Assembly: GCA_903851385.1 (NCBI GenBank)
Contig: CAINOC010000036.1
Coordinates: forward strand, 13,273-77,272
DNA from: an uncultured Chlorobiaceae bacterium
Lineage (GTDB): Bacteria > Bacteroidota > Chlorobiia > Chlorobiales > Chlorobiaceae
Direction: 5' to 3'
DNA length: 64,000 nucleotides
Shown one piece after another: positions 1 through 48,962 of the stretch (position 1 is its first letter; every line of letters starts with the position of its first letter). The position numbers were made by a program, and so were the translations under genes. Below the pieces are notes generated by a model. That model had not been told where the DNA came from. It ran no database searches and saw only the letters and a list, made by a program, of their open reading frames with translations.

Positions 1-13
1 ACCAAGGGCAACT

Positions 14-133
14 GTAGGCAGTAGGCAAAAATGTAAGTTACAGCAAAATTCCAACTTCCACCACTATTGATATTACTGCTGACTGCCCCACTGGAAACTG
101 CTAACTATTTCCAGTCAGCACTCAGTCCTCAGT
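14..133. repeat. 7-nt-period degenerate repeat module (GTAGGCA x2; ACTGCYN-type units; CAGYMCT units)
   Basis: GTAGGCAGTAGGCA at 14-27; ACTGCTG-ACTGCCC-C-ACTGGAA-ACTGCTA-ACT at 75-106; CAGCACT-CAGTCCT-CAGT at 116-133. Confidence 0.7.
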
Positions 134-234
134 ACATAAAAAGCCTACGAGCCTCAATAGACACCAAAAGACAAAAAAATAATAACACCAAATCCCTATA
201 TTATCACTACAATCGGTGCATGCAGATTTGCGAC

Positions 235-283
235 ACTGCCCACAGCCTACTCAAGACTGCCAACTGATTTCAACCTCAGCACT
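235..283. repeat. 7-nt-period repeat arm abutting the first start codon
   Basis: ACTGCCC-ACAGCCT-ACTCAAG-ACTGCCA-ACTGATT in register at 235-269, then CTCAGCACT at 275-283 directly before ATG 284. Confidence 0.7.
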
Positions 284-820
284 ATGTTTAAAACTCTAGC
301 CATCTTCCTAACAATACAGTTCCTGTTGTTCGTTACCCCTGCGTCCTCATATTCAGCTGAACCAAGCAAATTACAGGATACTTCACCTAGCTTCAAAGGT
401 GTTATCGGTCCAAGCTACCCCCTGGTTCAGGACTCCTACTTCACCGATGACTTTGGCAACATTCTCATGACCATCAACGTTCTTGGTCAGGCCAACCATC
501 AAGGTCAGGTCATTGTACAGGAAGACGCCGACCTTGCTACCCTTATCACTACGGTAGGTGGTATAAGCCCCTATGCGAACCCGAAAAAAATCATAGTCAT
601 CCGCAAATATCCCGACCCGGATGGCACACAATTCTATAAAGTAAACCTTAAAAAATTCTTAAAAAACGGTGACCGTTCATCATTCGTTGTCCTTAAACCG
701 AACGACACAGTCATCATCCCCGAAGATAATGGGATCTCTCTGGCAACCATCTCCTCGGTAATATCTCTCTTCTCAAATGGAATCAGCACTTACTACATTT
801 TAAAGCAGCTCGGCAAGTAA
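284..820 (+). CDS. SLBB-domain polysaccharide export protein (short, Wza/OPX-like)
   Basis: Signal peptide; SLBB-like segment INVLGQANHQG...GGISPYAN...IIVIR...LKPNDTVIIP; C-terminal hydrophobic helix; directly upstream of wzc. Confidence 0.75.
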   Translation: MFKTLAIFLTIQFLLFVTPASSYSAEPSKLQDTSPSFKGVIGPSYPLVQDSYFTDDFGNILMTINVLGQANHQGQVIVQEDADLATLITTVGGISPYANPKKIIVIRKYPDPDGTQFYKVNLKKFLKNGDRSSFVVLKPNDTVIIPEDNGISLATISSVISLFSNGISTYYILKQLGK

Positions 821-848
821 CAGGGTAAAACAAACCACGTAGACCATC

Positions 849-3269
849 ATGCCCGATACCCAGACCTCTGGTACCGACAAAAAACTGAATAAGGCCTCTA
901 AACCTACTCTCAATAAGGGCCACCTGCAGCCAAACATTCAGGAGTACTTCGTTGAGCCCATCAAGGAACTCGACATTGAAGAAGTTCTCAATGTCATCAA
1001 CCGTCGCAAATTCGGCATCGTTTTTTTTCTAATCATTTCCGTCGCTGTCGCTTGGCTTTTACATAAGGCCGAAGTTCCCGACTATTATGCGGAATCTATA
1101 ATTCTGATAGACAATCCATTCGGAAATAACCCCGTTGATGCAGCCCTTGGCACCACAGGTGAGTCCGATGCCAAAGCGGTTAAAAAAGACGTAGAGCTTT
1201 TAACCTCAATGCCCATTACCCAGATCGCCGTTCGCGAACTCCTTAAAACCACTAAACGCGACTCGCTCGAATTCTTCGGTAAAAGACAATACCGATCATC
1301 GCTCGACGACATCCTTATTTTGATGTCACCCTTTTCTGACAAACGGTCAGCGCAAACCATTAACCTCAATGGACCTCTATATCCCGATCAATTTATTCGG
1401 ATAATGGCTATGAAGTTCAGCAATCGTATAAAGGTTGACCCGGTGCGCGAAACCAGTCTCATCAAAGTCTCCGTTCGAAGCCCTTTTCAGGATGAAGCCG
1501 TCTATCTGACCAACACCCTGTGCGCGGCTTACAAAAACGCTGACATTTCACGTAAGTCTGAAAAATACAAGCAGTCAAGCGCATTTATTGCAGAAATGCT
1601 CCAAAACCAGCAGAAATTCGTTGCCCAAACCGATAGTCTCCTATCCAGATATATGGAGACCAACAAAATGTATGAGAATTCTGGCAATGTTGGCCAACTT
1701 CTCTCAAAAGTCACCGAAATCGATTCCAAAGTTAACGACCTCAAGACAGAAAGCCGTATAACTCAAAACAGCCTTGACTTTCTCCAGTCAAAACTCTCTG
1801 AGGCCGACCGGATCCTCAGTACACGCATAGCCAAAACCGTAAACGCCAAGCTCTCTGCCATTCTCGAGGATATTAAAGATCAGCAAAAACAATACGTAAA
1901 GCTTATTGCCGAAAAAGGTATCGATGACGCCGATACCAGAAACAAAAAGCAGCAGCTCGATGCCGCACAAGCCCGTTATGAAAACTTGAGCCGCAGCCAG
2001 ATAGCAGGCGAAATCAACTACACTGGACGCACAAAAAAATACAGCTTTGACCTCATCGCCGAAAAACTCGAGACAGAGCGGAAATTCAATCTCCTCAATA
2101 ACAGTGCCATTGAATACGAAAAGCTTAAAAACAGCTACGAAGCCAAGGTCAACCTTCTTCCTAAAAAGCAGCAGGACTACGCCAAACTTCAGCGCGACCG
2201 AGACGTGGCAGGTAAAACCTACACATTCCTCAAAGAAAAGCTTGATGAAAGTCGTATCCTGCTTGGTTCGGAGGTTGGTAACGTCTCCATCATCGGCAGC
2301 GCTTTTCGCCCTTTTTTCCCGGCAAATTCCAGTCCACTTAAAAATCTGCTTATCGGTCTGCTTGTTGGCGGACTGCTCGCATTCATCTACACTCTACTTA
2401 GTGAATATCTGGACGACAGTATTCAGGACGCAACCTTTTTAAAAAACCAGGGCTTCACCATTCTTACACAAATTCCTTTCGTTACAGACATTTACAATGG
2501 TTCGAAGGCAATCACTGATACAAACACAAAAAATGCAGATAATCCCGGCACTGATACATTTTCTTCTGTTCCTTTAATCACGGACCGCCTTTCCTCCTGG
2601 TATGCCGAAAGCTTTCGTACCCTTCGAACCGCCATCAGTTACTACAGCATAGACAACCCCTTACATTCTATTATTATCACAGGTGTTTCAGCCGCCGAAG
2701 GCAAATCCTCCGTTTGTGCAAACCTTGGTATAGCCCTTGCCCTCAATGGCCGAAGAACTATCATTATTGACTGCGATCTCCGCCTTGCATCCCAGCATAA
2801 AATCTTTAAAATAAAACGGGAGAATGGTCTCAGCGACTACCTCTATTCCGACCTTAAAATTATCGATGACAGTTATATTAAGCCTACCCATGTCACGAAC
2901 CTGAGTGTTATTACAGCGGGTAAAAAAATTCCAAATCCCAACGAGTTCCTCTCATCACAAAAAATGCAGGAGCTTATCTTACATCTTGAGACAAAATTTG
3001 ATATAGTCCTTATTGATAGCCCTCCGCTTTTCCTCAGCGACGCAGCCCAGCTAGCCCAAACCGTCGATGGCATACTGATCACTTCAAGGGTGAACTACAC
3101 TCCACGCAAACCTATTAAAGATCTTGCTGATGACCATTTAATCTCCTCAAATATCATTGGAGTTGCTCTTATTGGCTCCCCCAAGAATACCTATGGCTAT
3201 GGCTACGGCAAATACAGTCAACACAAATATGGTTATGGCAATAGGGGCAGTTATTATGGAAAAGAATAA
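849..3269 (+). CDS. wzc: Polysaccharide co-polymerase / BY-type tyrosine kinase (Wzc/GumC family)
   Basis: Two TM helices flanking a coiled-coil region; Walker A EGKSS, A' IIIDCDLR, B VLIDSPP; Tyr-rich tail YGYGYGKY...YGYG...YY. Confidence 0.93.
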   Translation: MPDTQTSGTDKKLNKASKPTLNKGHLQPNIQEYFVEPIKELDIEEVLNVINRRKFGIVFFLIISVAVAWLLHKAEVPDYYAESIILIDNPFGNNPVDAALGTTGESDAKAVKKDVELLTSMPITQIAVRELLKTTKRDSLEFFGKRQYRSSLDDILILMSPFSDKRSAQTINLNGPLYPDQFIRIMAMKFSNRIKVDPVRETSLIKVSVRSPFQDEAVYLTNTLCAAYKNADISRKSEKYKQSSAFIAEMLQNQQKFVAQTDSLLSRYMETNKMYENSGNVGQLLSKVTEIDSKVNDLKTESRITQNSLDFLQSKLSEADRILSTRIAKTVNAKLSAILEDIKDQQKQYVKLIAEKGIDDADTRNKKQQLDAAQARYENLSRSQIAGEINYTGRTKKYSFDLIAEKLETERKFNLLNNSAIEYEKLKNSYEAKVNLLPKKQQDYAKLQRDRDVAGKTYTFLKEKLDESRILLGSEVGNVSIIGSAFRPFFPANSSPLKNLLIGLLVGGLLAFIYTLLSEYLDDSIQDATFLKNQGFTILTQIPFVTDIYNGSKAITDTNTKNADNPGTDTFSSVPLITDRLSSWYAESFRTLRTAISYYSIDNPLHSIIITGVSAAEGKSSVCANLGIALALNGRRTIIIDCDLRLASQHKIFKIKRENGLSDYLYSDLKIIDDSYIKPTHVTNLSVITAGKKIPNPNEFLSSQKMQELILHLETKFDIVLIDSPPLFLSDAAQLAQTVDGILITSRVNYTPRKPIKDLADDHLISSNIIGVALIGSPKNTYGYGYGKYSQHKYGYGNRGSYYGKE

Positions 3270-5226
3270 TTTCCTAAAAAGTATAAAGAGTCTGCTTCAA
3301 GGCCAAAAGAAGGTTTTGGCGTTTTTTTTTGACATTACGGCATCTCTATTCAGTGTCTGGGTGGCCATCTCGTTCCGGTACGATTGTGTTCGTCTTCCTG
3401 AACGTCAAGAGTGGATAGTCTACCTTCTCGCCCCTTTACTTATGTTGCCAATTTTTATTACCAAAGGTCTTTACCGTGCAATCTACCGCTATCATGGTCT
3501 TGACGCTTTCATCACCATCCTGAAAGCAGTATTTATTTATGCTTTTTGTTTGATTGTGGTGCTTTTATTTCTCCATATCCCAGGTATTCCCCGATCGATT
3601 GTCTTCCTGCAGCCAATCATTATTCTCCTTATAACATTATTCAGCAGGGCTTGTATTGGCTACTGGTTTTCGTTAAAGAACAACAAAAGAAATAACAAAA
3701 ATATCACCTCACCCCCTGAACAAGTATTAATCTATGGGGCCTGTTTATCAGGCGTACAGCTGCAAAATGTCATCTCCAGCCACCCCAATTTCGACTTTGC
3801 CGGCTTCATTGACGATGACACCTCTCTCTCTGGCCGCACAATCAACGGTCACATGGTCTATAGCCCAAGCGAAGCGTTGCCGCTCATTCAACGCCATAAC
3901 ATCAAAAATATTTTTCTGGCCAGTCCCAGAATTACTCGTTTTAGAAGGCTGGAGATTGTCGAATACTTTAAGAACTATCACGTAAATCTTCGCTTCCTGC
4001 CAAACATTAAGGACCTCACCGAAGGCAAAGTCACCTTCTCCGAAATTAAAAAAATAGATATTGAAGACCTCCTTGGCCGCGACACTATGCCACTCAGCGA
4101 CCCGTTAACGATAAACACCATAAGCGGCAAAGTCATTATGGTAACCGGTGCAGGGGGTAGTATTGGGAGTGAACTTTCCCTGCAGATTCTTGCCCTCCAA
4201 CCCACCAAACTGCTTCTTGTTGATAATGCCGAATACAGCCTCTTTAATCTCCACAACCGCCTGATTGAGTTAAAGGTTAAAAATAATTTTAGCACACTCA
4301 TCGTACCACTCCTTGCTGACATTACAAATGAGGATCACATCTCGAATATCATTCGCATCTACCAGCCATCTATCATTTACCATGCTGCAGCCTACAAGCA
4401 TGTCCCGATGGTTGAATACAATATTTCTGAAGGTGTCCGCAACAACGTTCTCGGCACCCTCAGTATTGCCAAAGCCGTTCGTCAGCATAGAACACCAGCC
4501 CTGATACTAGTTAGCAGCGATAAAGCAGTCCGTCCAACTAACGTCATGGGCGCCAGCAAGCGCCTCTGCGAACTCATACTCCAAGCATTCTCCGCTGAAC
4601 CAGGAAACACAACCAGCATAAGTATGGTTCGATTCGGGAACGTTCTCGGCAGCAGTGGTTCCGTCGTTCCACTCTTTCGTACTCAAATCAGCCATGGAGG
4701 ACCAATCACCATTACCCATAAAGAGATTACTCGTTACTTCATGACTATCCCCGAAGCAGCCCAGCTCGTTATCCATGCTGGCAGCATGGGCAATGGAGGT
4801 GATGTCTACCTGCTTGATATGGGCGAACCTGTTAAAATCATCGACTTGGCCCATCGTATGGTCACTCTCTCAGGTCTTTCGGTTCGCGACCAAAACACAC
4901 CAGACGGTGATATCGAAATTAAAGTCATTGGCCTGCGTCCCGGCGAAAAACTCTACGAAGAACTGCTTATAGGCAACAATCCGTCTCCCACAGCCCACCC
5001 CCGAATCTTTAAGGCTAACGACCACTTCATACCCTGGTCTATACTTGAGCCAGAACTCAACAACCTTATGCACTACATCAAAACCGACAACATAAAAGGC
5101 ATAAAGCAAATACTGAAAAAACTTATTCCCGAATACAAACCTAGCCTTGCCATTACCGACCACTTACAAAGCGAAGCCGAAAGCACAACTAAAAAAATAC
5201 CCATAACCCCCCACCAGAAAAACTAG
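3256..5226 (+). CDS. Membrane-anchored UDP-GlcNAc 4,6-dehydratase (CapD/PglF/WbpM family)
   Basis: 4 N-terminal TM helices; TGAGGSIGSEL, HAAAYKHVP, SSDKAV, VRFGNVLGSSGSV, GLRPGEKLYEEL. ATG 3256 preferred over the ORF-track start, which lies inside wzc. Confidence 0.93.
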   Translation: MEKNNFLKSIKSLLQGQKKVLAFFFDITASLFSVWVAISFRYDCVRLPERQEWIVYLLAPLLMLPIFITKGLYRAIYRYHGLDAFITILKAVFIYAFCLIVVLLFLHIPGIPRSIVFLQPIIILLITLFSRACIGYWFSLKNNKRNNKNITSPPEQVLIYGACLSGVQLQNVISSHPNFDFAGFIDDDTSLSGRTINGHMVYSPSEALPLIQRHNIKNIFLASPRITRFRRLEIVEYFKNYHVNLRFLPNIKDLTEGKVTFSEIKKIDIEDLLGRDTMPLSDPLTINTISGKVIMVTGAGGSIGSELSLQILALQPTKLLLVDNAEYSLFNLHNRLIELKVKNNFSTLIVPLLADITNEDHISNIIRIYQPSIIYHAAAYKHVPMVEYNISEGVRNNVLGTLSIAKAVRQHRTPALILVSSDKAVRPTNVMGASKRLCELILQAFSAEPGNTTSISMVRFGNVLGSSGSVVPLFRTQISHGGPITITHKEITRYFMTIPEAAQLVIHAGSMGNGGDVYLLDMGEPVKIIDLAHRMVTLSGLSVRDQNTPDGDIEIKVIGLRPGEKLYEELLIGNNPSPTAHPRIFKANDHFIPWSILEPELNNLMHYIKTDNIKGIKQILKKLIPEYKPSLAITDHLQSEAESTTKKIPITPHQKN

Positions 5227-5238
5227 AAAGAAAGTAAA

Positions 5239-5495
5239 GTGCTGAGTATCGAGTGAACAGCCAAGAGAGTAATCAGTCAGCAGTAGGCAGTCTTAATTAC
5301 ACGCTGTCATCAATCTCTGCACTCATCACTAAGAAAGTTGCCAACTGCCAACTTTTCTTCATTTCACTCATCACACATCGCCTTACGTAGGCTGGGGTGA
5401 TTCCTGAACCCCAACAAAACAAAAGTTATCTCTCTTGATTTCAGAAATGATCGCGAACTGCCGACTGTCATTTCTCTTGTTTTCAACTGCCAACT
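5239..5495. repeat. 7-nt-period repeat module with nested complementary arms
   Basis: Purine-rich arms GTGCTGAGT...GAGTGA (5239-5256) and CAGTCAG-CAGTAGG-CAGT (5274-5291); roughly complementary arms CACTCATCAC (5320-5329, 5365-5374), TGCCAAC x2 (5339-5352), ACTGCCG-ACTGTCA (5457-5470), AACTGCCAACT (5485-5495). Confidence 0.75.
5387..5415 (+). repeat. GTAG-family REP-like palindrome
   Basis: GTAG followed by the hairpin GCTGGGGT-gattcctga-ACCCCAAC (7 of 8 stem pairs). Confidence 0.55.
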
Positions 5496-5506
5496 ATCTT
5501 TCTTCC

Positions 5507-7288
5507 ATGATTTTCCCTCTCCTCTTCCGTCTCTGGTTCCATATGTCAAAAAGGCGTAGAAAGCAAATATTCCTTCTCTTGATCTTAATGTTCGCAGCCT
5601 CATTCGCCGAAATCCTAAGCATAGGAGCCGTCCTCCCATTTCTCGCAGTCCTTACAAACCCCGACCGCATATTCCAGCTTCCATCAGCAAAACCATTCAT
5701 CAACCTTATAGGAATCACCTTTTCAAGTCAGCTCTTGCTCCCGCTCACCATCGGGTTTGGAGTAGCCGCCTTCATATCCGGAGCAATGCGTCTCCTCCTC
5801 CTCTGGGCCAGCACACGCATCTCCTATGCAACAGGGGCTGACCTCAGTATCAGCATCTACCGCCGAACTCTCTACCAGCCTTATTCAATACATGTATCCC
5901 GCAACAGCAGTGAAGTTATAAACGGTATCTCAGGTAAAGCGAGTAGCGTCATTGGGGCAATAATATTGCCATCTTTGACGATCATCAGTTCGGCCATTAT
6001 GTTAATTGTAATCCTAATGGCTCTGGTGTCAATAGATCCGGTAATCGCTTTGGTGGCTTTTGGAGGATTTGGCTTGATATACGCCATCATTATCCGCCTT
6101 ACCCGAGGCAGGATGTTAATTAATAGTCAAAGCATTGCCCGTGAATCAACACAGCTCATCAAATCATTACAGGAAGGGTTGGGTGGTATACGCGATGTTC
6201 TTATTGACGGCTGCCAGACAGTATATTGCGAAATCTACCGCAACGCAGATCTCCCTTTGCGCCGGGCCCAGGGCAATAGCAATTTTATCAGTCAAAGTCC
6301 ACGCTTTGGCATCGAAGCTCTCGGAATGATGCTCATCGCAGCCTTGGCATATCTCCTTGCCCACCAGCCCGATGGAGTAGCTAAAGCGATTCCGGTTCTT
6401 GGGGCTCTGGCCCTTGGCGCTCAGCGTTTGTTACCAGTACTCCAGGGCTCGTATGCGTCATGGTCCAGCATTCAAAGCGGACAAGTCTCTTTGAAAGACA
6501 CCCTCGAACTGCTCGACCAACCACTACCCGAATATGTCGACCAGCCACCCGCGAAACCCATCCCATTTCACCAGCAACTCACCCTTAAACAACTCTCATT
6601 TCGCTATACGCCCCAAACGCCATGGGTACTCAAGAACCTTGATCTTACAATTAAAAAGGGCAGTCGTATTGGCTTCATAGGTCTTACCGGCAGCGGTAAA
6701 AGCACCCTGCTCGATGTCATTATGGGATTGCTCCAGCCAAACGAGGGAACCGTTGAAATCGATAATCAAATAATCACAATACACAATACCCGCCAGTGGC
6801 AGGCCCATATCGCTCATGTACCCCAAGCCATCTTTTTAGCCGACAGCACCATCCAGGAAAACATAGCCTTTGGAGTACCAATAAATAAAATTGACCTGAC
6901 CCTCGTAAAACAAGCCGCTGAGAAGGCTCAAATTGCAGATATCATCGAAACCTGGCCCAAAAAATACAACACCTTCGTAGGCGAACGCGGCATCCGCCTC
7001 TCCGGCGGTCAACGCCAACGCATAGGTATAGCAAGGGCCCTTTACAAACAAGCCGACGTAATAATCTTCGACGAAGCCACCAGCGCCCTTGATAATAAAA
7101 CCGAAGCAGCAGTAATGCAATCCATAGAATCTCTAGGCAAAGACCTGACCCTACTGATCATAGCACATAGATTAACCACCCTGCAGAATTGTGATCAGAT
7201 AATAGAATTAGCTAACGGAGGGATAAAACGAATAGGAACATATCAAGAAATAGTTGGAGAGCAAAACATTATCACCAGCGACTCTTAG
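5507..7288 (+). CDS. ABC-type lipid-linked oligosaccharide flippase (PglK/WlaB/HepA-like TMD-NBD half transporter)
   Basis: Multi-TM N-half; Walker A GLTGSGKST, signature LSGGQRQR, Walker B IIFDEATSALD, H-loop IIAHRL. Confidence 0.9.
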   Translation: MIFPLLFRLWFHMSKRRRKQIFLLLILMFAASFAEILSIGAVLPFLAVLTNPDRIFQLPSAKPFINLIGITFSSQLLLPLTIGFGVAAFISGAMRLLLLWASTRISYATGADLSISIYRRTLYQPYSIHVSRNSSEVINGISGKASSVIGAIILPSLTIISSAIMLIVILMALVSIDPVIALVAFGGFGLIYAIIIRLTRGRMLINSQSIARESTQLIKSLQEGLGGIRDVLIDGCQTVYCEIYRNADLPLRRAQGNSNFISQSPRFGIEALGMMLIAALAYLLAHQPDGVAKAIPVLGALALGAQRLLPVLQGSYASWSSIQSGQVSLKDTLELLDQPLPEYVDQPPAKPIPFHQQLTLKQLSFRYTPQTPWVLKNLDLTIKKGSRIGFIGLTGSGKSTLLDVIMGLLQPNEGTVEIDNQIITIHNTRQWQAHIAHVPQAIFLADSTIQENIAFGVPINKIDLTLVKQAAEKAQIADIIETWPKKYNTFVGERGIRLSGGQRQRIGIARALYKQADVIIFDEATSALDNKTEAAVMQSIESLGKDLTLLIIAHRLTTLQNCDQIIELANGGIKRIGTYQEIVGEQNIITSDS

Positions 7289-47152: not shown

Positions 47153-48012
47153 GCCTCAAACCACAGTCTTCATGGCTATCTTGGTTCCTGTTTGTTGCTG
47201 TTTTGCTGCATTCGGTAGTTAAGTACTCTTTCTCGCCTGAGATTCAAGGTGACTTGTTGTTGTTGTACCCGACACTCTTAGCGGTTTTATGGATGGAGCG
47301 CAATAGCATATTCGAAACCTTTCGCAGCAGTGCCTTAGGTCATCCTGTGTTGGGATTTGTGCTTTTTATAGTAGGATCTTTTTTCGCTGTAGCTGGTGGG
47401 GTGGCGCCTTCATTAGTTGCTGAAGTTTTAGGGTTGTTTTTTATTGCTGCAGGATTTGTTGCATCTTTCGCTCCTTCCAATTATCTTCGTTCATCATTAT
47501 TCATTGCTTTTGCTGGTATTGTTATAGTGATCCTTGGCTCTATTGGCCCTTCGCTCTTATCGTCCGAACTGGCCGTTACGTTAGCTGCACTTTCAGCCAA
47601 AGTACTCAGCGCTACAATTCTGCCTGTTGTCGCAAACGGAGTCACCCTCTATTTTGGTCAATATAGTGCCACTGTGACCAAAGACTGTTCAGGGATGAAT
47701 TCCATTTTTTCATTGACAGCACTTTCTATTCTTTACCTCCGTGAGGGAGTGAATCGTAAACCATGGCATATTGCCTTGATGGTCGCAAGTATCATTCCAG
47801 TGGCGGTGCTTACCAATTTTATGAGAGTGATGCTTGTGGTACTTGCCACTTGGTACGTGGGTGATTGGTTTGCCCAGAGCATTTTCCATGAGACCATTGG
47901 TGTTGTAGCTTTTGTCCTGGCACTTCTGCTCCTGACATTTATCGATAGGTTATTGCTTTTTGCAAACTCTCTTGTAAAGCCTAATGATGGGAGCACTCAT
48001 GCGCCTGACTAA
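47149..48012 (+). CDS. Exosortase (EpsH family)
   Basis: About 8 TM helices; catalytic triad motifs DCSGMNS (Cys), TNFMRV (Arg), FHETIG (His). Confidence 0.9.
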   Translation: MSLKPQSSWLSWFLFVAVLLHSVVKYSFSPEIQGDLLLLYPTLLAVLWMERNSIFETFRSSALGHPVLGFVLFIVGSFFAVAGGVAPSLVAEVLGLFFIAAGFVASFAPSNYLRSSLFIAFAGIVIVILGSIGPSLLSSELAVTLAALSAKVLSATILPVVANGVTLYFGQYSATVTKDCSGMNSIFSLTALSILYLREGVNRKPWHIALMVASIIPVAVLTNFMRVMLVVLATWYVGDWFAQSIFHETIGVVAFVLALLLLTFIDRLLLFANSLVKPNDGSTHAPD

Positions 48013-48661
48013 ATACTCCCTTCTTGCTATAGTCTTTAGCCTTATCCTCATTTCATCTGAGATATTGGTTCAAATTAGGCAGCAACCTTTTAAGGGGGCA
48101 AAACCTGACTTGCAAAGCATCATAACGCAGCACCCCCAAGGCTGGGAGTCTATACCTGGTTCATCTGTAGATCCCAGTACAAACACTCCATACGATCTGG
48201 TTGCAACTCAAATCTATAAACGTGCTGATGGCAAAGAAGCCTCTATCGTTATGACTTGGAGCTTCGACGGCTTCCACCGGGCAGGGCACGCTCAGGAAGT
48301 GTGCTATAACTCACAAGGCTTTACTGTCTCAACCCCTCGGAATAGCTCAGTGATGGTAGGAGCTCAAAAGCTTGATGTCGTTACATTTGAAGGTCGCTAT
48401 GGCGATATGACTGAAGACGTCATCTATTGGAGAGTCACCGGCGGAATACACGACGCAACACTCCAGGAAAACATCCCCATGACACAGCGATTTAAAGAAG
48501 TCCCCCGAATCCTTATCGGTGATATTCCCAGCAACCTGATGGTCCGTGTATCCACCTGGCGCCCTGCCACCGACCCACCATCCACCGTCCACATCGACTA
48601 CATCAAATCCTACCTCCAATCCGTCTCACCCAACACCCGCCACTTCCTCACCGGTCTCTAA
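47999..48661 (+). CDS. epsI: EpsI-family exosortase-associated protein
   Basis: N-terminal TM; Y...QIYKR.DG, HAQEVCYNSQGF, VIYW, LMVRVST; overlaps the exosortase 3' end. Confidence 0.8.
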   Translation: MRLTKYSLLAIVFSLILISSEILVQIRQQPFKGAKPDLQSIITQHPQGWESIPGSSVDPSTNTPYDLVATQIYKRADGKEASIVMTWSFDGFHRAGHAQEVCYNSQGFTVSTPRNSSVMVGAQKLDVVTFEGRYGDMTEDVIYWRVTGGIHDATLQENIPMTQRFKEVPRILIGDIPSNLMVRVSTWRPATDPPSTVHIDYIKSYLQSVSPNTRHFLTGL

Positions 48662-48702
48662 ACCCCATCCCCGTCATTCCCATTTCCAGCAAGGAATCCG
48701 TC

Positions 48703-48798
48703 TACATATTCCGGCCAACCTCGAACACTAATTCCGGAAAAGGTCGAACAATTTTTTACCCTGACCGGAAAAGATGTTCGATATTGCCGGAATAAGCA
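48703..48798. mobile_element. 96-bp IS21-family-like miniature element (MITE / internally deleted IS)
   Basis: Ends TACATATTCCGGC and (reverse complement) TGCTTATTCCGGC, 11 of 13 identical; repeated units ATTCCGG-N6-TCGAACA at 48708 and 48731 and an inverted copy TGTTCGA...CCGGAAT at the right end; no ORF; no clear target duplication. Confidence 0.65.
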
Positions 48799-48872
48799 AT
48801 TTTAGCGCTGAAAACAAGGGCTGAGTGTGTAATTTGCCCATTTCCATCACCCAAAAAAGCTTACAATGTGAA

Positions 48873-48953
48873 CAGTCAGCATCAAATCCTGACTTTTTTT
48901 CATTATTAACTCAGTATTTTAAACTGCCGATTGCCCACTGTCAACTGCTAACT
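48873..48953. repeat. 7-nt-period repeat arm at the right edge of the polysaccharide locus
   Basis: CAGTCAGCA at 48873-48881; ACTGCCG-ATTGCCC-ACTGTCA-ACTGCTA-ACT at 48923-48953, ending 9 nt before ATG 48963. Confidence 0.75.
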
Positions 48954-48962
48954 CTAGAGTTC

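Follow-up and report, generated by a model that had tools for sequence, protein, structure and literature searches.

STRR-like heptamer arrays in a Chlorobiaceae genome are linked to gene 3' ends with a marked strand polarity

Heterocystous cyanobacteria reportedly carry heptamer repeats termed short tandemly repeated repetitive (STRR) sequences, described in 1990 by Mazel and colleagues. STRRs are dispersed in hundreds of mostly intergenic copies with several unit types per genome, are restricted to particular lineages and have no known function. Several of the published units share an ACTG core when rotated or complemented. REP/BIME and Correia-type repeats are also dispersed extragenic elements; they follow the 3' ends of genes and are co-transcribed, and their stem-loops affect mRNA stability, termination or RNase III processing. 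These repeats are unique palindromes mobilized by RAYT or other transposases and are not tandem repeats. Among dispersed heptamer repeats, including the STRRs, known since 1990, and the TAACTGA and Geobacter arrays described below, we know of none with an accepted function.

TAACTGA direct repeats have been found in marine Beggiatoaceae and in some Cyanobacteria and Bacteroidetes, and most of these arrays are in the forward orientation and end about 1 nt before start codons (MacGregor 2015, PMC4679880). The ORF-bearing 23S rRNA intervening sequence (IVS) of Coxiella has a stem built from tandem heptamers that differ in number from strain to strain, and RNase III cuts this stem at the first repeat (Warrier et al. 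2016, PMC4990558). Geobacter metallireducens carries paired, ORF-less heptanucleotide arrays of about five tandem units with the consensus MTYCTGA. The Geobacter arrays are multicopy, intergenic and mostly arranged as inverted pairs, with a GGGACCG family at 49 sites, and they were interpreted as binding sites of a global regulator, with no stop-codon positional rule reported (Aklujkar et al. 2009, PMC2700814).

We analyzed a window of 64,000 nt (C36:13273-77272) from the genome of an uncultured Chlorobiaceae bacterium (2.98 Mb, 45.7% GC, 120 contigs). The nearest relatives of the DUF218 protein encoded in the window are from uncultured Chlorobiaceae MAGs (80-87% identity), which identifies the organism as a green sulfur bacterium. 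The window starts with the end of a DegT-type aminotransferase gene (DegT_DnrJ_EryC1, E=6.5e-96; ends at 24, stop TAG 22-24), which is followed by a Wza-like SLBB gene (284-820, SLBB_2 match), a Wzc-like kinase gene, a CapD/Polysacc_synt_2 gene (3157-5226, stop TAG 5224-5226) and an ABC transporter gene (from ATG 5507). CMP-sugar and NeuB genes and many others are located further 3', followed by an EpsI/DUF3485 gene (47984-48661), the DUF218 gene (from ATG 48963), a cupin gene and FtsA. The start codons at 284, 5507 and 48963 are backed by relatives that align from residue 1-2, and from residue 2 in the case of ATG 5507.

Tandem heptamers were found in three spacers of the window (1-283, 5227-5506 and 48662-48962), the same three sites for which a shared degenerate heptamer vocabulary had been predicted. 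The first site lies between DegT and Wza and is therefore inside the sugar locus, not at its edge. We used a tolerant array scanner that accepts three units with 15/18 or 17/21 matches, or two units with 11/12 or 12/14 matches. The scan detected six arrays in the window, all within these three spacers, and none in about 10 other spacers of at least 80 nt, which agrees with the reported absence of the motif elsewhere. The modules contain no ORF, again as described. Of the proposal that they form one family, the shared vocabulary was upheld, but two types of unit are involved, ACTGCCN and ACTCAGC, and these usually occur together. The exact shared strings occur at the positions given for them, CAGTCAGCA at 112, 5274 and 48873 and AACTGCTAACT at 96 and 48943. 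CAGTCAGCA is the reverse complement of the junction between a unit ACTGCTG and a following ACTG, and its reverse complement is also present at 77. At default stringency, the only period-7 repeat that TRF reported in the window was TGCCAAC x2 (5339-5353, x2.1), and the window copies are therefore degenerate.

In the first spacer, two reverse-oriented ACTGCCT units (GTAGGCAGTAGGCA, 14-27, minus strand) enclose the DegT stop codon TAG 22-24. Three arrays follow on the plus strand. The first is a degenerate ACTGCCN-type array with a linker (ACTGCTG, ACTGCCC, CACTGGA, AACTGCT and AACTATT, 75-109), of which the scan detects 75-88, and the second is a degenerate ACTCAGC array (AGTCAGC, ACTCAGT, CCTCAGT and a final AC, 113-136), detected at 113-133. 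The third consists of seven units in an unbroken 7-nt register (ACTGCCC, ACAGCCT, ACTCAAG, ACTGCCA, ACTGATT, TCAACCT and CAGCACT, 235-283) and abuts ATG 284 of the Wza-like SLBB gene. This array represents the composite (ACTGCCN)n-ACTGATTTC-(ACTCAGC)n in minimal form, and its stretch 255-283 reads GACTGCCAACTGATTTCAACCTCAGCACT.

The second spacer opens with AAAGAAAGTAAAGTGCTGAGT (5227-5247, minus strand), which begins at the first base after the CapD stop TAG 5224-5226 and is, in reverse complement, an array tail (ACT..CTTTCTTT) together with about 1.5 units of ACTCAGC. Next to it is a reverse array (5271-5291, minus strand; reverse complement ACTGCCT, ACTGCTG and ACTGATT) that includes CAGTCAGCA. 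The plus strand carries TTGCCAACTGCCAACT with a ACTTTTCTTC tail (5338-5360), which holds the TRF repeat and is covered by 41 BLAST hits in the genome. It also carries the forward units ACTGCCG and ACTGTCA (5457-5470), seen in the sequence and in the array scan, and a last unit with a pyrimidine tail (ACTGCCA, ACTATCT and TTCTTCC, 5486-5506) that abuts ATG 5507. A REP-type palindromic element, CGTAGGCTGGGGTGATTCCTGAACCCCAAC (5386-5417, plus strand), composed of GTAG and then an 8-bp stem, is located in the same spacer and is separate from the heptamer arrays. The genome contains 47 copies of this element at 95% identity or more, and a gene for a REP-associated tyrosine transposase (C17:6011-6538; NF047646, E=2e-57) lies between inverted REP copies.

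The third spacer holds a short reverse remnant seen in the sequence, CAGTCAGCA (48873-48881, minus strand), with the reverse complement TGCTGACTG, from ACTGCTG followed by ACTG. Five degenerate units (ACTGCCG, ATTGCCC, ACTGTCA, ACTGCTA and ACTCTAG, 48923-48957, plus strand) are located upstream of ATG 48963 of the DUF218 gene. The last 20 nt or so before this ATG (GACTGCCAACTATAGAGTTCATG) are conserved in four species. A second conserved block is located about 100 nt upstream of the ATG, just 5' of the variable arrays (48800-48860, plus strand), and is shared by the window and the related sequences L001 and L002; the stretch of a third relative, L004, in the alignment covers only the last part of the block. 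Its conserved columns are around ATTTTAG.GCTGAAAACA.GGG.TGAGTGTGTAATTTG.CCATTTCCATCACCC. The block may be the promoter or leader of DUF218.

The arrangement of arms described in the original prediction was recovered in the window. Purine-rich arms (14-27, 5239-5247 and 5271-5291) precede pyrimidine-rich arms, and the gaps of 0, 11 and 9 nt between the pyrimidine-rich arm and the ATG were confirmed at three genes. The runs at 5486-5506 and 48923-48957 end 0-9 nt before their ATGs, the exact distance varying with the extent of pyrimidine tail included. SD-like motifs were found before 23% of well-scoring ATG genes of the genome, compared with 14% of random 17-mers. SD-like motifs are thus rare genome-wide, and the absence of an SD at the window starts is normal for this organism.

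In the whole genome, the tolerant scan detected 243 arrays, compared with 26 in a reversed-sequence control. Spacers make up only about 15% of the genome, but 73% of the arrays were intergenic (outside predicted genes). Rotations of (ACTCAGC)n were the most over-represented 10-mers genome-wide, followed by ACTGCCAACT. TRF reported period-7 arrays of ACTCAGC (71), AACTGCC (46), ACTGCCC (22) and ACTGCCG (15). The longest arrays share a syntax in which (ACTGCCN)n is followed by a short linker, such as ACTGATTTC, then by (ACTCAGC)n and often by ACT(T/A)TCTTTC. This tail was present on roughly a third of ACTCAGC arrays, a qualitative figure because the script missed overlapping matches. The pyrimidine-rich strand is free of stop codons in every frame, and TGA occurs in each of the three frames when ACTCAGC is read in reverse. 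Many contigs of the genome terminate in arrays, and the arrays account for many contig breaks in these metagenome-assembled genomes. Within the genus, (ACTGCCN)x3 was found in 6 of 25 genomes and (ACTCAGC)x3 in 16 of 61, with heavy loads in G000, G019 and G055. (ACTGCCN)x3 was absent from all 16 genomes that represented other families in the order. The three window sites are thus degenerate, ORF-less members of a dispersed heptamer-array family that is patchily distributed in the genus. Among the papers searched, none reported heptamer repeats in Chlorobiaceae.

Heptamer arrays had also been expected to flank four-helix-bundle (PF05635/TIGR02436) genes, and this was borne out across the order. 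In 14 Chlorobiales genomes, 16 of 19 such genes had a period-7 array within 200 nt, and 11 of the 19 had arrays on both sides, with a background elsewhere of 0.10 per kb. Most of these arrays are inverted; in the mRNA sense the G-rich arm is the 5' one, and the units vary by locus. The only clear PF05635 gene in the genome of the window (C93:19495-19881; TIGR02436, E=6e-35) carries ACTCAGC arrays; a second PF05635 match was weak, and the window spacers contain no PF05635 ORF. We rejected a dependence of the arrays on a resident four-helix-bundle gene: G019 is array-rich and has no PF05635 match at E of 1e-3 or better, so the arrays need no such gene. The best reading is that the window elements are of the same kind as the inverted heptamer arms that bracket PF05635 genes, minus the gene. 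This result connects arrays that lack an ORF with the heptamer arms of four-helix-bundle/IVS cassettes.

Convergent spacers held 0.79 arrays per kb, co-directional spacers 0.40 and divergent spacers 0.16 (convergent versus divergent, p=3e-8). Among arrays starting at most 10 nt after a stop codon, 44 were antisense to the gene ending there and 3 were sense. The antisense arrays read GCUGAGU or NGGCAGU, the purine-rich sequence, in the mRNA of the upstream gene. Our dicodon-scored gene caller scores the A/C-rich CapD gene wrongly and frequently sets starts too far 3', and the key polarity tests were therefore redone without gene calls; the stop-codon polarity was then 37 versus 5 of the 243 arrays (random points, 4.7%). 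Of the 32 arrays in convergent spacers, 27 were antisense to whichever gene was nearer. The median distance to the upstream stop in co-directional spacers was 7 nt for antisense arrays and about 75 nt for sense arrays. The junction stop-A(A)GAAAGT-(GCTGAGT)n recurs at many genes. Where neighboring arrays were in opposite orientations, the purine-rich array came before the pyrimidine-rich one in 16 cases and after it in 1. The window obeys the stop rule: GTAGGCAGTAGGCA encloses the DegT stop, and AAAGAAAGTAAAGTGCTGAGT begins immediately after the CapD stop. Both patterns were replicated in samples from the genomes of two related species. In G055 (292 kb, 119 arrays), the stop polarity was 19 versus 4 and the arm order 12 versus 1; in G019 (698 kb, 109 arrays), the stop polarity was weaker, at 16 versus 7, and the arm order was 13 versus 4.

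No corresponding link to gene starts was found, contrary to the expectation that the arrays end at ATGs. Measured from the pyrimidine-rich 3' end, an ATG opening at least 100 codons was located within 30 nt of 15 of the 243 arrays (6%), compared with 8.9% for random intergenic points. The distance to the next start did not differ between sense and antisense arrays (median 56 versus 60.5 nt). The start-proximal forward pattern, of the kind seen for TAACTGA, holds only at the three window sites. An element that marks start codons or replaces the SD was rejected as a property of the family, given the lack of a start-codon excess, the poorest array density in divergent spacers and the rarity of SD motifs. 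The family is linked to gene 3' ends, not to 5' ends.

The two strands of the arrays were predicted to fold very differently. For eight units, the purine-rich strands gave -28.9 kcal/mol (reverse complement of ACTCAGC), -19.8 kcal/mol (ACTGCCA) and -28.0 kcal/mol (ACTGCCG), with each unit contributing six pairs, some of them G.U wobbles. The pyrimidine-rich strands gave only -2 to -4 kcal/mol and are essentially unstructured in the prediction. This asymmetry was present in 125 of 125 real arrays of at least 28 nt (p=3e-22). Since the purine-rich strand folds on itself, the orientation that adjoins stop codons is a self-sufficient hairpin former. Gene 3' regions with antisense arrays folded better than array-free ones (z -1.5 versus -0.56, p=0.006). 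A longer stem is predicted where a complementary arm follows the purine-rich arm. In the window, 14-27 is predicted to pair with 235-250, and 5239-5291 with 5457-5506; the whole-spacer folds of the first two spacers, including 5227-5506, gave z=-2.65 and -2.2, and the fold of the third was no better than its shuffles (z=+0.41). Some neighboring opposite arms differ in unit type and are unable to pair.

A simple terminator scan of the three spacers found no canonical stem plus U-tract, and an Rfam search of the window gave no family match. Nothing convincing was found in the spacers as a canonical promoter or terminator. The purine-rich arrays form long predicted stems, and the ACT(T/A)TCTTTC tail offers only a C-interrupted U-tract. 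The original prediction had proposed RNA stems that act on the next gene. The stems are plausible, given the arm order of 16:1 and the spacer folds, but are more fittingly assigned to the 3' end of the upstream gene than to the next start.

The foldable strand after stops, the fixed arm order and the density gradient point to selection on the transcript, not on the DNA. We give about an even chance to a function of the arrays in RNA that depends on their orientation, as a 3' hairpin after the upstream gene. An array after a stop codon would form a stem-loop, alone or with a downstream complementary arm, and this stem-loop could end the 3' end of the upstream cistron, protect it or mark it for RNase III processing; the heptamer-built stem of the Coxiella 23S IVS is a precedent for such processing. 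Shine-Dalgarno sequences are seldom used in this organism, and the C/A-rich, G-poor version would give the next gene a leader free of structure. Where operons are densely packed, as in the polysaccharide locus, a single element takes up the entire spacer and therefore touches both the stop and the ATG. Hairpin formation cannot explain all copies, as co-directional spacers contain 55 sense and 31 antisense arrays and many arrays occur in a single, pyrimidine-rich orientation.

The main rival explanation, which we regard as possible though distinctly less probable, takes the arrays to be simple-sequence DNA that is neutral or selfish, a dispersed MITE-like or slippage-prone composite that spreads and decays in tolerant spacers and is of no use to the cell. 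Array length appears to be free at one site. At the DUF218 upstream site, the alignment of three related species (L001, L002 and L004) shows a range from about 1.5 to more than 20 units, with about 1.5 units in L001 and long (AACTGCC)n and (ACTCAGC)n arrays in L002 and L004. A copy-number difference of this kind between species at the same site is as would be expected from replication slippage, and the large differences argue that array length is under little constraint. The heavy degeneration of the window copies, the patchy distribution within the genus, the many assembly breaks within arrays and a higher-order tandem of about 78 nt at C116 and C44 fit the same explanation, as do neighboring genes that have no common function and are similar in length to other genes. 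The polarity would then reflect the positions and orientations that are tolerated, for example a stop-free strand kept away from the end of the coding strand, or the avoidance of promoters. However, the 44:3 stop bias and the 16:1 arm order, with the patterns seen in three species, are hard to explain without strand-specific selection, and the favored orientation is exactly the one in which the RNA folds.

A less probable explanation, which we consider unlikely and which was the main idea of the original prediction, is that small cassettes recombine or join at the arrays. Direct or inverted arrays would let toxin-antitoxin pairs, four-helix-bundle genes and glycan genes be gained, lost or exchanged, and the window sites would be 'empty'. 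Two other sugar loci, C93 and C74, are array-dense and hold PIN/VapC, ParE and MNT-HepT toxin-antitoxin pairs, as well as the four-helix-bundle gene, separated by arrays. Arrays 401-1500 nt apart were in the same orientation in 32 of 37 cases and could drive deletion or duplication by homologous recombination, and the bracketing of 16 of 19 four-helix-bundle genes in the order by period-7 arrays also fits this explanation. At the three orthologous junctions examined, however, the predicted gain or loss of cassettes was not seen: there was only array-length change upstream of DUF218, and other members of the genus had no heptamers at the CapD-ABC junction or at the one upstream of Wza. No recombinase was found beside the arrays, which speaks against a role as recombination sites. 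Arrays also occur 3' of housekeeping genes such as frr and nuoA, and array-adjoining genes were not shorter than others (median 242 versus 264 aa, p=0.26). The proposed marking of glycan-locus junctions failed as well. Mapped genome-wide, the motif is scattered over spacers, an outcome that the original prediction had itself taken to count against it, and 92 of 1224 spacers of at least 80 nt hold arrays. Taking as glycan-like those spacers that adjoin genes similar to the glycan genes of the window, 6 of 52 held arrays, compared with 86 of 1172 others (p=0.28), and 3 of 36 held arrays when the window was excluded. A locus-specific marker was therefore rejected, and in annotation the heptamer arrays should not serve as glycan-locus boundary markers.

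[quoted passage not shown]

The reading of the arrays as RNA elements acting at the 3' end of the upstream gene can be extended, in a form that we regard as speculative and rather unlikely as a whole. Wobble-asymmetric arrays would be a distinct class of orientation-dependent RNA elements derived from simple-sequence repeats. In one direction, they would fold into a hairpin with no fixed register, which would close or process the upstream cistron at the stop codon, and in the other direction they would provide a structure-free leader, with slippage tuning the length of the stem. STRRs, TAACTGA repeats, Geobacter arrays and four-helix-bundle/IVS arms would be versions of one principle, and the four-helix-bundle (Avd-like) protein might bind or spread arrays, as RAYT does for REPs.

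Compared with known systems, the window elements differ from integron-like cassette sites in that neither gene gain or loss nor a recombinase was found at the three junctions sampled. Compared with REP/RAYT, the heptamer arrays are not palindromic units, and a true REP family with its RAYT coexists in the same genome with a different sequence. The unit sequences also differ from those of the Geobacter arrays, although both are ORF-less, multicopy, intergenic heptamers. IVS and four-helix-bundle cassettes share with the window elements a G-rich arm 5' and a C-rich arm 3' in the mRNA sense and stems of tandem heptamers, but the window elements have no ORF, are not in rRNA and use one unit pair common to about 240 sites in this single genome. 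The TAACTGA repeats, with 2-6 or more copies, are likewise short intergenic 7-nt arrays with an ACTG core, a patchy spread and an orientation relative to genes. In contrast to them, the arrays described here show no start-codon enrichment, and their dominant rule is the reverse orientation directly after stops.

The resemblance to STRR-type arrays that had been predicted was supported, with 7-nt tandem units, many dispersed and mostly intergenic copies and several unit types in both. The units ACTGCCN and ACTCAGC and the phylum differ, and the published unit sequences of STRR1-3 were not matched. To our knowledge, neither the stop-abutting polarity nor the wobble-based strand asymmetry has been reported for STRRs. 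The window repeats are thus an STRR-like element in a new phylum with a new positional rule, and this Chlorobiaceae genome offers a clean, testable form of such a rule for dispersed heptamer repeats.

The spacer between the CapD/Polysacc_synt_2 gene (window 3157-5226) and the ABC transporter gene (ATG at 5507) was found to carry a REP-type palindrome, TGTAGGTTGGGGTGATTCCTGAACCCCAAC, comprising GTAG and an 8-bp stem (window 5386-5417). This palindrome has 47 near-identical copies genome-wide, about half of which are extended by a conserved tail of ~110 nt. A gene encoding a REP-associated tyrosine transposase (NF047646, E=2e-57) was identified on another contig of the genome (C17:6011-6538), with inverted copies of the palindrome on both of its sides. 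At the CapD-ABC junction of a relative (locus L039 of genome G015), we found a different, GC-rich repeat, GTACGGGCAGGGTCCCCCTGCCC ... TACGGGCGGGGTCTCCCCGCCCC, together with a single ACTCAGCAC unit. Because the repeats at this junction differ between the window and the relative, the junction is a general landing place for repeats.

We also observed that the coding strand of the first 6 kb (window 1-6000), and of the CapD gene above all, is strongly A/C-rich, with a GC skew of about -0.2 and an AT skew of up to +0.15 across the 6 kb. Under a dicodon model derived from this genome, the CapD gene received such a low score that antisense ORFs ranked above it, yet it has a Pfam match at E=5e-113.

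Heptamer arrays, the dispersed tandem 7-nt repeats built from ACTGCCN and ACTCAGC units, were found between nearly all neighboring genes in two further sugar-nucleotide/EPS loci (C93:12500-20045 and C74:100-6900), where they were co-oriented with the genes. Interspersed in these loci were PIN, ParE, and MNT-HepT toxin-antitoxin pairs as well as the only four-helix-bundle gene of the genome. On two other contigs (C116:15-302 and C44:18695-18864), a composite of (ACTGCCN)3, spacer, (ACTCAGC)4, and spacer was tandemly repeated with a period of ~71-78 nt, forming a higher-order repeat. A long open frame leading into a Sel1-like repeat protein contains, in its 5' portion, a 161-nt array of ACTCAGC/CCTCAAC units (C32:3086-3246). 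Since all three frames of the forward strand of the heptamer array are free of stop codons, the arrays could, judging from their sequence, be translated as 7-residue repeats.

In several relatives within the genus (loci L030, L032, L033, L034, and L035), the Wza-like gene is preceded, at a distance of 100-250 nt, by a conserved motif of ~26 nt, GCTGTGACTGAAGGATGCGGAGCTTT. This motif, which may be a locus-leader regulatory element, was not present in the window.

The heptamer units flanking four-helix-bundle (PF05635) genes in Chlorobiales (L087-L105) varied by locus and genome, and included GTAGGTT, AGTGCTG, GTTGTCA/ACTGACA, TCAAGGT/AACCTTG, AATGATG, and TTAAGAG/TTAACTC, among others. One unit pair flanking these genes, CAACTGA, is a near match to TAACTGA, the known 7-nt direct repeat of Beggiatoaceae.
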